A DNA stretch of 64,000 bases from a virus (taxonomy: Duplodnaviria; Caudoviricetes), in the IMG/VR virus record IMGVR_UViG_3300028175_000001, one strand, 5' to 3'. The position numbers were made by a program, and so were the translations under genes. The notes beneath the pieces are model-generated. The model worked only from the letters and a program-made list of their open reading frames with translations. It did no database searches and was not told the origin of the DNA. Positions 34,269 through 56,750 of the stretch are shown here, one piece after another. Every line of letters begins with the position of its first letter. Position 1 is the first letter of the stretch.

Positions 34269-34655
34269 TTAAATCATTTTTCCTAAAATCATGCCAAAGT
34301 CATTAGGTAAATGGTAAATTATATTTTTTTCATCTAAAAGTGTTTTAACTTGATCATATATGGATTCATCAAAATCAAAATACCACATATAATCTTCTGC
34401 CCATTGCCCAGCACATGAAACCAAAGAAAGCAATGTTGAATTATTAGCAGTGTGTTTATATTCATTTTTAACATATCCAGATGTAGTAGGATCAAAAGTG
34501 CATATTAACGATGATGTTTGTAAATGTATTTTATGAAAGTCTGTTAAATCTGGAACAGGTTCAATATCACAATCCAATACAAATTCATTATCAACTATTG
34601 TTAATGTTGCTTCTATCTCTATTCCGCTCTCTGTTAAAGGCATATTCCGCTCCAA
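34269..34655 (-). CDS. Acidic hypothetical protein
   Basis: 128-aa ORF, last gene of the inserted cluster. Confidence 0.65.
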   Translation of the reverse strand: MERNMPLTESGIEIEATLTIVDNEFVLDCDIEPVPDLTDFHKIHLQTSSLICTFDPTTSGYVKNEYKHTANNSTLLSLVSCAGQWAEDYMWYFDFDESIYDQVKTLLDEKNIIYHLPNDFGMILGKMI

Positions 34656-35221
34656 AAATCATCCCAAATAAGTTTATCTGCTGAATCATAAGGTCTAAAC
34701 CATTTATCCCCAACATGCATTTTTTTAACACCATCAAATGGAAGTTCGACCCAAAATAATAAGCGAGGTTTCCATTCTGGATTTAATTTCCAATTTTCCC
34801 AATGAAGAACACTACCTAAAAACGAATCCATTAATAAATCGTCACCTAAATACAAATAATTTATAATTTTACTGCCTAATTTTCTTAACAAAAGAGGATT
34901 TTCTAAAATAACAAAAACAGGTAGTCCATAAGCAGAATCAGGAAGTTCATCTAATGATTGCTCGTTAAATGTATGTATTGTTGCACCTGTTTGTTGTAAA
35001 TCATTCTTAATGGCTCTCATCATCTGAACTGCATGAATTTCATATTGTTCCATATCTAAGTCAGAATTAATATTATTATCAGGAAATAAAGATAAGGATA
35101 CATTCATAAGAAAATGATTAATCGCAATATTAGAACCATTAAGATGTGTAGGATATAAATCTTTTTTGAGAGAATTCGTCCAAGCAGTTTTAAATATTGT
35201 TCTTCGTTCTTCGGGAGTCAT
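34634..35221 (-). CDS. Hypothetical protein sharing a motif with the hidden ORF at 52674-52853
   Basis: 195-aa ORF containing LLLRKLGSKIINYLYLGDD. Confidence 0.7.
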   Translation of the reverse strand: MTPEERRTIFKTAWTNSLKKDLYPTHLNGSNIAINHFLMNVSLSLFPDNNINSDLDMEQYEIHAVQMMRAIKNDLQQTGATIHTFNEQSLDELPDSAYGLPVFVILENPLLLRKLGSKIINYLYLGDDLLMDSFLGSVLHWENWKLNPEWKPRLLFWVELPFDGVKKMHVGDKWFRPYDSADKLIWDDFWSGICL

Positions 35222-55800: not shown

Positions 55801-56750
55801 CCCGCAGAACCCGCAGTTCCAGAAATTCCAGAAGAACCAGCACTTCCAGCAGAGCCAGCACTTCCTGCAGAACCAGTACTTCCAGAAGAACCTGCAGTTC
55901 CAGAAGTTCCCGCAGTTCCAGAAATTCCAGAAGAACCAGATGTTCCAGATGATCCTGCACTTCCAGCACTTCCTGCACTTCCAGAAGAACCAGCAGAACC
56001 AGAAGTACCAATTGGACCATCAGCTCCAGATGATCCAGAAGTTCCAGCAGAGCCAGAAGAAGCATATGTCAATCCAGAAGAACCAGCAGAACCAGAAGTT
56101 CCAATTGGACCATCAGCACCAGAAGTTCCAGATGTTCCAGCAGAGCCAGCACTTCCCGCAGAACCCGCAGTTCCAGAAATTCCAGAAGAACCAGCACTTC
56201 CAGCAGAACCAGAAGATGCATATGTCAAGCCAGAACTTCCGGAACTACCCGCACTTCCGGAAGAAGTATCCCCTCCTCCGCCTCCACCAGATTCTCCCCA
56301 ACCACTTCCACCGGCCACTCGTTGGGCAGTTAAAGTGGCTTTTTTACTAATCTTTTTAACAACTTCTTTAAAATTATCTAACTCTTTTACGAGTTTAGTT
56401 ACATCAGCATCATCACCAGATTCTCCCTTTTCTCCCATTGGTCCTATAGGTCCAATATCTCCTAAATCTCCCCTAGGACCCTGAACACCTTGTGGACCAA
56501 TTCTTCCTGATATTCCTTTAACGCCCACTTCGCCAGCAAGCCCCTTTTCGCCCTTTTCTCCCTTTTCTCCCTTAGGACCTACAGTGCCTTTAATTTCAAG
56601 AACTTTAACTGTTTCACCAGTAACAGGATCTAAAATTTCTTTTATATCCTCTACAAGTTCTTCTTTAGTTTTTTTTAATTGTTTTTTAGTATAAGCAAGA
56701 GAAGTTGCTAGAACCTTACTTAAATCTAAATCTTTTTGATCGTCTTTCAT
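52854..56750 (-). CDS. Gly-X-Y repeat fibre protein (collagen segment, Gly-Ser/Ala/Thr repeats, C-terminal intramolecular-chaperone-like domain)
   Basis: 20 collagen triplets (GTV...GDD), three long G-S/T-A/S blocks, two interspersed globular domains, and C-terminal DLAERY...PGTVL...GVVSDNPG...LTGRI. Confidence 0.8.
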   Translation of the reverse strand: MKDDQKDLDLSKVLATSLAYTKKQLKKTKEELVEDIKEILDPVTGETVKVLEIKGTVGPKGEKGEKGEKGLAGEVGVKGISGRIGPQGVQGPRGDLGDIGPIGPMGEKGESGDDADVTKLVKELDNFKEVVKKISKKATLTAQRVAGGSGWGESGGGGGGDTSSGSAGSSGSSGLTYASSGSAGSAGSSGISGTAGSAGSAGSAGTSGTSGADGPIGTSGSAGSSGLTYASSGSAGTSGSSGADGPIGTSGSAGSSGSAGSAGSAGSSGTSGSSGISGTAGTSGTAGSSGSTGSAGSAGSAGSAGSSGISGTAGSAGSAGSAGTSGSSGADGPIGTSGSAGSSGLTYASSGSSGSAGSSGSAGTAGSAGSAGSAGSAGSAGSAGSAGTSGSSGTSGSAGTSGSAGSSGLTYASSGSAGSAGSSGSVGTSGSSGTSGSAGSSGSSGTVGTSGSSGHDGGFGGASFAYRYSTDQSTNDPGTGKLAFTLTTGAFTYPTTANRLRISDTDQDGTTIDSFLQTIDDVAFSVPKGHFRIYDKSAPEKYFLYSINEFDTTNPSWYYVDVTFLDSSLNNFQNNTEIVASFARTGDSGTAGTSGSSGSSGSAGSAGSAGSAGSAGSAGTSGSSGSSGSAGSAGSAGSAGSAGSAGSAGTSGSAGTSGSAGSSGSAGSSGSAGSAGSAGSSGSAGTSGSAGTSGSAGSSGSAGTAGSAGSAGSAGSAGSSGSAGSAGSAGSAGSAGSAGSAGSAGSAGSSGSAGSAGSSGSAGSAGSTGSSGSSGLTYASSGSAGSAGSSGSAGTAGSAGSAGSAGSAGSAGTSGSAGTSGSSGSSGSAGSAGSAGSAGSAGSAGSAGTSGSAGTSGSAGSSGSAGSSGSAGSAGSAGSSGSAGTSGSSGTAGSSGSSGSAGTAGSAGSAGSAGSAGSSGQDGGSWIHVQGSASSVWLINHNLGVRPLNIEVVDSNYDVIYPESIRYISSNTAKLVFATAISGWAALTFGEGSSGTSGSSGTAGSSGSSGSAGTSGSAGTSGSAGSSGTSGTAGSSGLTYASSGSAGSAGSAGTAGTSGSAGSSGADGAPTSPAGAAGYVQYYASSSSLGAYSGYRVNDITTPTELYFNGAIFSSSGVTGLSALKVYGTSGFDGTMTTKAIVPVANNTHDIGTSTMVYNDMYAVTFNGRATSASWSDLAERYESDLVYDPGTVLSIGGEKEVTLYQAEMPYAGVVSDNPGLRMNDSMEQRKNEFMIFICLTGRILVKIVGRCVKGDLIMAYNDGAGKSITKYEYKSHKHDLIGIALSDSDAGFVEVKI
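53520..56270. repeat. Low-complexity 9-nt-period coding repeat in three blocks (~53520-53775, ~53990-54990, ~55380-56270)
   Basis: ccagcagaa/ccagcactt/ccagaagaa units on the + strand; boundaries approximate. Confidence 0.9.

Follow-up and report, generated by a model that had tools for sequence, protein, structure and literature searches.

A phage-only Cys-heptad protein beside three radical SAM enzymes and a lipid/polyketide gene set in the head operon of a T4-like phage

The window examined here, which is the whole 64,000-nt stretch of DNA from the IMG/VR virus record IMGVR_UViG_3300028175_000001 (Duplodnaviria; Caudoviricetes), contains a 22.5-kb island (34269–56750, minus strand) inside the head operon of an uncultured marine T4-like phage. 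At its core lies a protein built on a cysteine-rich heptad repeat, which belongs to a phage-only family and is followed by three radical S-adenosylmethionine (SAM) enzymes, denoted classes A, B, and C. Since these enzymes recur beside the heptad gene on other contigs, the heptad protein and the radical SAM trio form a conserved unit that extends well beyond this lineage. This core was missed by an earlier note on the same DNA, which was made from the sequence alone. The sequence data show which genes the island contains, where it lies, that it is conserved, and that the heptad protein and the radical SAM trio occur together. We interpret the island as a phage fibre module with its own protein-maturation enzymes, to which a lipid/polyketide module was added in this lineage, and give this interpretation about an even chance.

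The heptad protein and its radical SAM enzymes

The core comprises five genes.

52854–56750, minus: collagen-like fibre of 1298 aa with 298 Gly (Pfam Collagen, 303.5 bits in 11 stretches; PHROGs tail-fibre families)
52063–52674, minus: Cys-heptad protein of 203 aa with 41 Cys, the proposed substrate of the three radical SAM enzymes
50509–52059, minus: radical SAM class A (Pfam Radical_SAM and Fer4_12; SPASM at 16.7 bits, cut-off 21.5; NCBIfam PapB at 75.4 bits)
49188–50573, minus: radical SAM/SPASM class B (NCBIfam PapB at 135.5 bits, QhpD next; C-terminal Cx2Cx5Cx3C)
46604–47956, minus: radical SAM class C, extended at its N-terminus by about 110 aa (Pfam Radical_SAM; NCBIfam PapB at 62.9 bits)

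The Cys-heptad protein opens with an N-terminal helical domain of about 110 aa and continues into 13 heptads of the type CPCNCNF, with Cys amounting to 20% of the chain; in the DNA the repeat appears as a 21-nt period with 12.6 copies and 89% matches. A collection of 5.8 billion proteins yielded 36 relatives, none of them named by its source and only one, P0025, carrying a Pfam domain. The family is phage-only, and phrog_26958, which has no assigned function, was matched by all 26 aligned members. Common to these are a motif near the N-terminus centred on P-C-P-x-N-L-T, about 100 aa of helical domain marked by E-x-x-R-R, and the heptad array, which ranges from 4 to 14 heptads per member. When the 221 heptads of the 26 aligned proteins were pooled, the consensus C-[P/T]-C-[N/D]-C-[N/D]-[F/H/Y] was obtained, in which Cys is invariant at the first, third, and fifth positions, P or T prevails at the second, the fourth is N, D, or Q in 98%, the sixth is N or D in 98%, and the seventh is F, H, or Y in 90%. 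P0025 terminates in a Peptidase_S74 intramolecular chaperone (IMC) domain (25.6 bits against a cut-off of 22), and six other aligned members stop with the first 12 residues of the S74 domain's SD[KR][KR]LK start. Records of the window's own Cys protein exist for 77 contigs, which reach 204 kb in length. An allele that is 93% identical to it (P0002) has 11 heptads where the window has 13, so that the 21-nt repeat is length-polymorphic in nature.

An AlphaFold2 (AF2) model of the protein gave a three-helix N-terminal domain with a predicted local distance difference test (pLDDT) score of about 80, and repeats scoring below 50. The top VIA-align match of this model, a designed helical filament, had a Z of 8.2, which is within the chance range for helical models, and against BFVD it retrieved nothing at E up to 0.001. 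In the fibre encoded upstream, Gly-X-Y tracts with abundant Ser, Ala, and Thr lead into a globular C-terminal domain, and a weak Peptidase_G2 IMC match was found in the C-terminus (17.7 bits, below cut-off); the fibre gene has a DNA periodicity of 9 nt and, owing to its codon content, a guanine-cytosine (GC) fraction of 0.41–0.49.

All three radical SAM proteins contain the CxxxCxxC cluster motif and score above the Pfam Radical_SAM cut-off. The SPASM-type Cys pattern is canonical in class B (Cx2Cx5Cx3C), and class C has only a short Cys cluster. For each of A, B, and C the best NCBIfam model is the PapB ranthipeptide maturase, followed by QhpD, Nif11-type, SCIFF, CcpM, and CXXX-repeat maturases, and among solved structures class B is closest to the thioether-forming CteB (5wgg; E 1.9e-13). 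PapB and QhpD couple the sulfur of Cys to the beta or gamma carbons of Asp or Glu, and QhpD acts inside a protein subunit (QhpC), not on a secreted peptide.

The setting of the heptad gene was compared in the lineage of the window, which consists of the window itself and contigs G001, L001, L013, and L014, and in the neighbourhoods of six further, diverse members of the family. In L008, a 157-kb T4-like phage, giant fibres and a collagen-like protein are followed by the heptad gene, radical SAM A, B, and C, a 2-oxoglutarate (2OG) oxygenase, and then gp13, gp14, and gp15. About eight radical SAM genes accompany the heptad gene on L010, a metagenome-assembled contig from NCBI; on L011, a contig of 500 kb, they lie on both sides of it, together with glycosyltransferases. 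The contig L016/L017 has an S74-ended heptad protein among eight radical SAM genes, and in the 223-kb phage L018 an S74-bearing fibre stands upstream of the heptad gene and three divergent radical SAM genes downstream. Radical SAM genes thus adjoin the heptad gene in every context examined. The order A-B-C is found in the window, G001, L013, L014, L008, and L016, all three classes occur in L010, and A and B in L011. Counted by groups of contigs beyond the window's lineage, the three classes recur in at least five. Orthologues of class A were assigned in L008, L010, L011, L013, L014, and L016, those of class C in the same contigs except L011, and those of class B in all contexts and additionally in Campylobacter phage CP220 (gp023). 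Large fibre-like or S74-bearing neighbours of the heptad gene were seen in L008, L010, L018, and the lineage of the window. Neither a leader peptidase nor an ABC exporter was found among the island proteins (Pfam/NCBIfam) or in the Pfam lists of the other contexts, where some open reading frames (ORFs) have no assigned family. In L010, IS605-type OrfB/TnpB and Y1 transposase genes (13304–14847) lie on the opposite strand in the middle of the radical SAM array beside the heptad protein.

In place of lipid genes, the module has sugar-tailoring genes at its flanks in the other contexts (glycosyltransferases, DegT aminotransferase, carbamoyltransferase, and epimerase). Their presence by the module is compatible with lineage-specific decoration, and equally with the habit of variable regions to gather envelope-related auxiliary genes (PMC7029224), as in Pelagibacter phage Mosig. 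In that cultured pelagimyophage (MT647606.1, 50765–69271), two Asp/Asn hydroxylases, a desaturase, a TauD protein, three MoaA-like radical SAM proteins, a carbamoyltransferase, and aminotransferases are encoded beside tail fibre and S74 genes.

Island layout and the lipid/polyketide genes

The island is flanked by the following elements.

58505–58516, minus: near-consensus T4-type late promoter AATAAATATAAAT, 45–50 nt before the portal start
56777–58459, minus: portal gp20 (Pfam Portal_T4, E 4e-178), the upstream boundary of the island
34243–34250, minus: consensus T4-type late promoter TATAAATA, 34 nt before the next ORF, where the head genes restart
32656–34208, minus: four small ORFs labelled "prohead core" from position and basic composition only
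32002–32646, minus: prohead protease, a downstream head gene
30742–31941, minus: scaffold, a downstream head gene
29382–30722, minus: major capsid protein, a downstream head gene

The earlier note had described a biosynthetic block of this size inside the head operon, with about 26 genes. The block was confirmed at 34269–56750, where 27 ORFs, each of 55 aa or more, are closely packed on the minus strand, and the inventory given there (fibre, Cys-repeat protein, three radical SAM enzymes, four oxygenases, acyl carrier protein (ACP), AcpS, polyketide synthase (PKS), short-chain dehydrogenase/reductase (SDR), and three desaturases) was correct. All genes in the island part of the window are on the minus strand; 21 of the 26 ORF junctions overlap, one abuts, and four have gaps of 3–13 nt. 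After a gap of 26 nt behind the portal gene, the 5' part runs from the 1298-aa fibre through a 55-aa ORF to the 41-Cys protein and radical SAM A and B. Radical SAM B is followed by two ORFs, radical SAM C, three further ORFs, and an Asp/Asn-hydroxylase. The lipid part then follows in the order ACP, SDR, type III PKS, AcpS, desaturase, 2OG-Fe(II) oxygenase, 96-aa ORF, and two desaturases, and the 3' end is made up of an ORF with an S-C-E-G-H (SCEGH) motif, a TauD-family oxygenase, a Rieske-type oxygenase, and three small ORFs. A 60-nt gap separates the island from the four small ORFs, protease, scaffold, and major capsid gene. Of the flanks proposed earlier, the portal and the head genes stood; the four ORFs gave no detectable homology to HTVC008M ORFs or PHROGs, and "prohead core" is therefore a positional label.

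The capsid protein matched best that of Pelagibacter phage HTVC008M (63.8%), then Methylophilales phage Melnitz (62%) and Pelagibacter phage Mosig. In HTVC008M, the nearest cultured relative, the portal gene directly precedes four small ORFs and gp21, so that the 22.5-kb block is an insertion relative to this phage. The window portal is 88% identical to that of G001 and 51–54% identical to cyanomyovirus portals, and the remainder of the window is occupied by a module for replication and recombination of the T4-like type. No tRNA gene was found in the window, and megablast of the whole island against 50,697 phage records gave no match. The GC fraction of the island (0.30–0.33) equals that of its flanks, with the exception of the Gly-rich fibre gene.

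The TATAAATA site that the earlier note had placed at 34243, where the head genes resume, was located at 34243–34250, and further copies on the coding strand lie at 61507 before gp18, at 31991 before gp22, and at 23333 outside this region. The intergenic gaps of the island contain neither TATAAATA nor its 7-of-8 variants, and terminator-like sites are at chance level (7 found, 7.2 expected), as had been suspected by eye. By motif alone, the island thus has the arrangement of a T4-type late operon, with a late promoter upstream and none in its gaps. The site at 58505–58516 is likely the start of a transcript that would read through the island, and the gene layout fits such read-through from the portal promoter. 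The promoter motifs would accordingly place the expression of the island late in infection. The minus-strand late promoters at 61507, 58505, 34243, and 31991 share an extended motif, (T/A)ATAAATATAA(A/C), which is longer than the T4 octamer.

The placement after gp20, for which conservation had been proposed as a check, was found by database search to be retained in related phages. On G001 (IMG/VR IMGVR_UViG_3300009703_000012, also listed as L002) the island spans from portal to capsid, in the order sheath, tube, portal, two collagen-like giants, a trio of small proteins, Cys-repeat protein, three radical SAM genes with partner ORFs, ACP, TauD, SDR, PKS, AcpS, 2OG oxygenase, seven tandem desaturases, SCEGH protein, head genes, and capsid; the Rieske and Asp/Asn-hydroxylase genes are absent from it. 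On L001 (PKS 92% identical to that of the window) and L013 (68%), the island continues into the same head genes, and L013 has a shorter form of the Asp/Asn-hydroxylase. L014 (74%) covers the fibre through the PKS, two desaturases, and the Rieske-type oxygenase gene to the contig end. The window, G001, L013, and L014 keep the order of the lipid genes directly behind radical SAM C and three conserved ORFs, and the stops and starts of these genes overlap; L001 has the ACP-to-desaturase block in the same order and lacks the three ORFs after radical SAM C. A chimeric assembly of host and phage, which was considered as an origin of the island, was ruled out by the related gene sets on these four other contigs, the T4-like genes on both flanks, and the 77 contigs with the window's Cys protein. 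Recent capture from a host was likewise ruled out by the GC fraction equal to the flanks (fibre gene excepted) and by the identity of at most 30% between the PKS and cellular proteins.

The lipid/polyketide genes and the oxygenases are as follows.

43974–44756, minus: Asp/Asn beta-hydroxylase family (LpxO-type) Fe/2OG oxygenase (Pfam Asp_Arg_Hydrox, 32 bits)
43745–43996, minus: ACP (Pfam PP-binding, 30.1 bits against 20.8; NCBIfam ACP models; D-S-I attachment site)
43147–43752, minus: short SDR of 201 aa, a candidate ketoreductase (adh_short at 26.3 bits, cut-off 26.6; TGxxxGxG and YxxxK)
42122–43150, minus: type III PKS (Chal_sti_synt_N at 36.2 and Chal_sti_synt_C at 33.7 bits, cut-off 27)
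41769–42143, minus: AcpS-type phosphopantetheinyl transferase (Pfam ACPS, 41.8 bits against 25; NCBIfam holo-ACP synthase models)
41032–41790, minus: Delta9-type membrane desaturase 1, part of the 38512–41790 block
40274–41050, minus: 2OG-Fe(II) oxygenase (Pfam 2OG-FeII_Oxy)
40000–40290, minus: 96-aa ORF between desaturases
39266–40054 and 38512–39300, minus: Delta9-type membrane desaturases 2 and 3, part of the same block
36591–37718, minus: TauD-family Fe/2OG oxygenase (Pfam TauD, 35.6 bits)
35728–36621, minus: Rieske-type oxygenase alpha subunit (Ring_hydroxyl_A at 59.6 bits; Rieske at 19 bits, below cut-off; CxH...CxxH present)

The Cys-His-Asn triad of the PKS is represented by the motifs ACNGG, HPGG, and GNMSA, an assignment made by inspecting the motifs and not from an alignment with residue numbers. 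Among solved structures, 108 type III PKS chains matched at E below 1e-5, the best being the alkylpyrone synthase Pks11 of Mycobacterium tuberculosis (Mtb; 1.4e-29), THNS, and the resorcinol-forming CylI. The phage PKS clade is at least 67% identical within itself, and its nearest cellular relatives are enzymes of Bacteroidota at 25–30%, named by their sources as alkylresorcinol or alkylpyrone synthases. Among other phages, only Streptomyces phage ZL12 gave a PKS match, to a gene with 24% identity. The island PKS is not accompanied by a methyltransferase of any known family. The short SDR is kept in all five contigs of the lineage. On L013, a FabA-type dehydratase gene (11040–11465, plus strand; Pfam FabA at 101 bits, with a weak ApeI-like match) directly follows the PKS, with no counterpart in the window. 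Taking this enzyme together with the motifs of the ACP, AcpS, and SDR, the set resembles a small ACP-based chain-building system.

Two of the three desaturases exceed the Pfam FA_desaturase cut-off and the third is a 45% identical paralogue by BLAST; all three contain the complete set of His boxes (HRxxxH, HRxHH, and HxxHH). Their family is a large one, with short members of about 250 aa that the sources annotate as stearoyl-CoA Delta9 desaturases. Their number is three in the window and L001, seven in G001, and two as called in L013 and L014, and both copy number and sequence diversify fast. The seven of G001 (12148–17667 on L002) are tandem diverged Delta9-type paralogues, 29–66% identical to those of the window. 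Among the contigs compared, the lipid half is confined to this lineage.

Proposed maturation of a fibre component and its rivals

Under the preferred interpretation, the core conserved across unrelated phages would consist of one or two collagen-like fibres, the heptad-array protein, and the maturases A, B, and C. The island would be transcribed late, together with the portal gene, and the three enzymes would then act on the heptad array. Most likely they would form thioether bridges from the sulfur of Cys to side-chain carbons of neighbouring Asn or Asp, possibly also of the aromatic residue, for which PapB in ranthipeptides and QhpD in the QhpC protein subunit are precedents. With three Cys as donors and three conserved residues as potential acceptors (N/D, N/D, and the aromatic position) in every heptad, and with three enzyme classes, the arrangement fits a thioether ladder. 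The product may be a covalently laddered, rod-like segment of a fibre-type virion component. The added module, that is, ACP, AcpS, PKS, SDR (joined in a sister phage by a FabA-type dehydratase), three to seven desaturases, and four Fe oxygenases, would make on the ACP a long-chain, unsaturated, hydroxylated acyl or alkyl-pyrone/resorcinol-type lipid, destined for the fibre or the Cys-heptad protein, or acting in the infected cell. The more specific proposal that the phage's own lipid is attached to the laddered array or to the collagen-like fibre, giving a stapled, lipid-bearing head/neck appendage, and that the module represents a widespread, undescribed form of virion-protein maturation in large phages, is rather unlikely as a whole. 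The earlier note had named the virion, through the fibre or the Cys-repeat protein, as the most economical target of modification. The Cys-repeat protein held up as a candidate target, with radical SAM neighbours in every context, and the fibre or virion chemistry is something that we infer.

The core would be of a known kind, in which radical SAM enzymes mature a Cys-rich product of the ribosome; its setting and form are new. As in the PapB-PapA (freyrasin), CteB-CteA (SCIFF), and QhpD-QhpC systems, enzymes related to SPASM/twitch maturases adjoin a Cys-rich candidate substrate with Asp/Asn-type acceptors, and QhpC sets a precedent for a cross-linked protein subunit instead of a secreted peptide. 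The island differs from these systems in directing three enzyme classes to what would be one substrate of about 200 aa, with 4–14 strict heptads of three Cys each in the family, and in being phage-borne, in structural operons beside fibres, with no peptidase or exporter found and with an S74 domain in one family member. Viruses that modify their own structural proteins are known from the capsid cross-links of HK97, the virion glycosylation of mycobacteriophages, and the collagen hydroxylase/glycosylase of Mimivirus. These share the concept, but involve neither radical SAM thioether chemistry nor a PKS/ACP pathway, and the modification in the island is read from its genes. For the lipid half, the bacterial phenolic-lipid pathways with type III PKS (Mtb Pks11, Azotobacter ArsABCD, Streptomyces SrsABC, and cyanobacterial CylI) show the same PKS motifs and supply the nearest solved relatives, whereas the island PKS is at most 30% identical and stands with its own ACP and AcpS and three to seven desaturases in a lytic phage operon. 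Plant sorgoleone, in which a PKS works with desaturases and ring/chain hydroxylases, is a functional analogue. The desaturases described from cyanophages (PMC5776448) are likewise short Delta9-type enzymes of marine T4-like phages; those are described as single auxiliary genes, whereas the island lineage has tandem diverged paralogues inside a PKS/ACP operon.

Radical SAM arrays have been described in other T4-like phages. Campylobacter phages CP220 and CPt10 have 11–12 radical SAM genes, read as metabolic (PMC2853527), and pelagimyophages have radical SAM cassettes in a variable "host recognition cluster" (PMC7029224), which is situated between VrlC and gp14 and not, as the island, after gp20. 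Both papers assign roles in host metabolism and name no substrate (PMC2853527, PMC7029224), and unlike the island, these clusters are without PKS, ACP, and AcpS. CP220 gp023 is an orthologue of class B (33% identity, E 3e-63). Two genes after the portal, CP220 gp032 (L003, 16908–17279) encodes a protein of 123 aa with 27 Cys in period-3 C-x-[N/D] repeats, which may form an analogous substrate-enzyme pair with gp023; with a repeat period of 3, it is not a member of the heptad family. In the literature searched, no description was found of the heptad family, of a phage radical SAM substrate, or of a type III PKS/ACP set in a T4-like phage.

Several results weigh against the preferred interpretation. 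The window's heptad protein has no S74 domain, its chain stopping directly after the repeats. The heptad-family profile retrieved nothing from the PDB sequences at E up to 1, and no similarity to a solved fibre was detected; the protein gave no tblastn match among the 50,697 phage records, a search in which the low-complexity filter may hide the repeats; and neither cultured phages nor virion proteomes are known to include a family member. None of A, B, and C reaches the NCBIfam PapB equivalog cut-off of 340 bits, and the trusted cut-offs of all models are missed. With scores so far under these cut-offs, the chemistry is a family-level guess, and the three enzymes are relatives within the superfamily branch and not PapB equivalogs. 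As for the lipid half, no acyltransferase, ligase, or glycosyltransferase was found in the island with Pfam and NCBIfam. PKS, ACP, and desaturase genes are missing beside the radical SAM/heptad module in the other contexts, and short Delta9-type desaturases stand alone in another phage and in a 2-Mb bacterial contig. Mosig gave no heptad protein by tblastn, and its lipid and oxygenase genes lie beside fibres all the same, so that such genes may be ordinary auxiliary genes of a plastic region.

The results on the lipid half speak for a division of the island into two systems, in which the fibre, heptad protein, and radical SAM enzymes are structural, and the lipid and oxygenase genes are independent auxiliary genes, for host membrane remodelling or a phenolic lipid, gathered in a hyperplastic spot. 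This division is doubtful, though it deserves serious weight. The earlier note had read the whole as one hybrid pathway of peptide modification and lipid/polyketide synthesis, and this unity gained no support from the comparison: the two halves occur apart in other phages, desaturases are found solitary in phages and bacteria, and the island yielded no acyltransferase or other coupling enzyme. Genes for a dioxygenase and a halogenase lie between the terminase genes of HTVC008M, variable regions of pelagimyophages hold radical SAM cassettes and, in freshwater forms, fabF and a stearoyl-CoA desaturase (PMC7029224), and the cyanophage lipid desaturases are described as auxiliary genes (PMC5776448). 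However, the order of the lipid genes directly behind radical SAM C and three ORFs is kept in four of the five lineage contigs. The phage PKS clade (at least 67% identity within), moreover, was found only with this island in the contigs compared and is at most 30% identical to cellular PKS, which argues for long residence and not for a recent pick-up. The division also overlaps with the preferred interpretation, under which the lipid may likewise act in the infected cell.

The other rivals concern the heptad protein itself. It could be the precursor of a ribosomally produced and post-translationally modified peptide (RiPP), with a 110-aa leader and modified, possibly lipidated repeats that are freed at lysis as a diffusible bioactive peptide, for instance, against competing bacteria or phages. 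The enzymes do come from RiPP maturase families, a precursor adjoining its maturase is the typical layout, ranthipeptides such as freyrasin (PapB) have repeated core motifs, the N-terminal domain is predicted as three helices alone (pLDDT about 80), as long leaders can be, and bacteria make RiPP-fatty acid and RiPP-PKS hybrids such as lipolanthines and goadvionins. We nevertheless consider a secreted peptide improbable, and a structural role is favoured by the S74 chaperone domain of one member, the start of which six others retain, the giant fibre genes that the gene accompanies within structural operons, the failure to find a leader peptidase or exporter in any context, and the variable repeat length, which at 93% identity is 13 heptads in one allele and 11 in the other and resembles that of fibre shafts. 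It is still less probable that the protein is a metallothionein-like carrier of metal or iron-sulfur clusters, serving the radical SAM and non-heme iron enzymes of the phage, or a metal-held trimeric fibre shaft. Its 20% Cys and CxC spacing are typical of metal binders, its gene co-occurs with up to eight radical SAM genes, and its repeats are unstructured in the AF2 monomer model, as if ligand or partners were needed; for the shaft, HxH motifs bind iron in the tip of T4 gp37. A cluster donor, however, requires neither strict N/D at positions 4 and 6 nor an aromatic residue at position 7, a fibre chaperone domain would be superfluous for it, and the matched SPASM maturases take Cys-rich peptides as substrates. 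The metal-bound fibre variant is compatible with the preferred interpretation.

If the heptad protein is a part of the virion that radical SAM enzymes cross-link, chemistry of the RiPP type would reach beyond secreted peptides into the structure of viruses, and the unexplained expansions of radical SAM genes in Campylobacter phages, pelagimyophages, and jumbo phages would gain a testable role. The motif C-x-C-[N/D]-C-[N/D]-aromatic would then be a new substrate motif for enzyme discovery, and CP220, with gp023 and gp032, would offer a cultivable system for the enzyme-substrate idea. As far as our searches reach, the set of type III PKS, ACP, AcpS, and desaturases is the first in a lytic T4-like phage, and this set is abundant enough in marine metagenomes to matter when viral sequence is surveyed for lipid and natural-product genes.

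Further genes of the island and the window

The remaining ORFs of the island are listed below.

52674–52841, minus: 55-aa ORF, a remnant of a gene like 34634–35221, resembling the trio homologues of L001 and G001
48353–49174, minus: 273-aa protein, a distant paralogue of 37715–38515 sharing the SCEGH motif
47956–48381, minus: small conserved protein preceding the class C gene
44753–46611, minus: three ORFs (304, 69, and 245 aa) that separate radical SAM C from the lipid genes
37715–38515, minus: 266-aa SCEGH-motif protein (AF2 pLDDT 62.8)
34269–35718, minus: three small proteins of 166, 195, and 128 aa (the trio)

The trio lies between the fibre and the Cys-heptad gene in G001, L013, and L014 and at the far end of the island in the window. 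Since the trio of the sister phages occupies the position of 52674–52841, the arrangement in the window is a derived rearrangement and the 55-aa ORF is its scar. The family of the 195-aa protein also occurs directly after the heptad gene in L008; an exhaustive search for relatives of 34634–35221 gave 8 representatives among 1.8 billion proteins, none of them informative. The small protein at 47956–48381 has homologues in G001, L013, L014, and L001, and a weak one in L008 at the same position. The three ORFs in 44753–46611 are kept in G001, L013, and L014; Pfam and PHROGs made no assignment for them, and Atlas offered nothing usable for 44753–45490 and 45697–46611. For the SCEGH-motif protein at 37715–38515, Foldseek gave weak matches only (Prp/TM1457 family, E 4.5e-3; PH1069, E 0.08), and among the SCEGH proteins the Atlas leads TYW3 and DUF6919 (listed for 48353–49174) and MTHFR_C scored at only 0.79–0.80, so that TYW3-like or Prp-like folds are weak leads. 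Orthologues of its paralogue at 48353–49174 in the sister phages are without the SCEGH motif. Outside the island, the minus strand of the window encodes a C5 cytosine DNA methylase (16963–18222), an HtrA-like trypsin/PDZ protease (8622–9686), and a group 1 glycosyltransferase (25512–26555).

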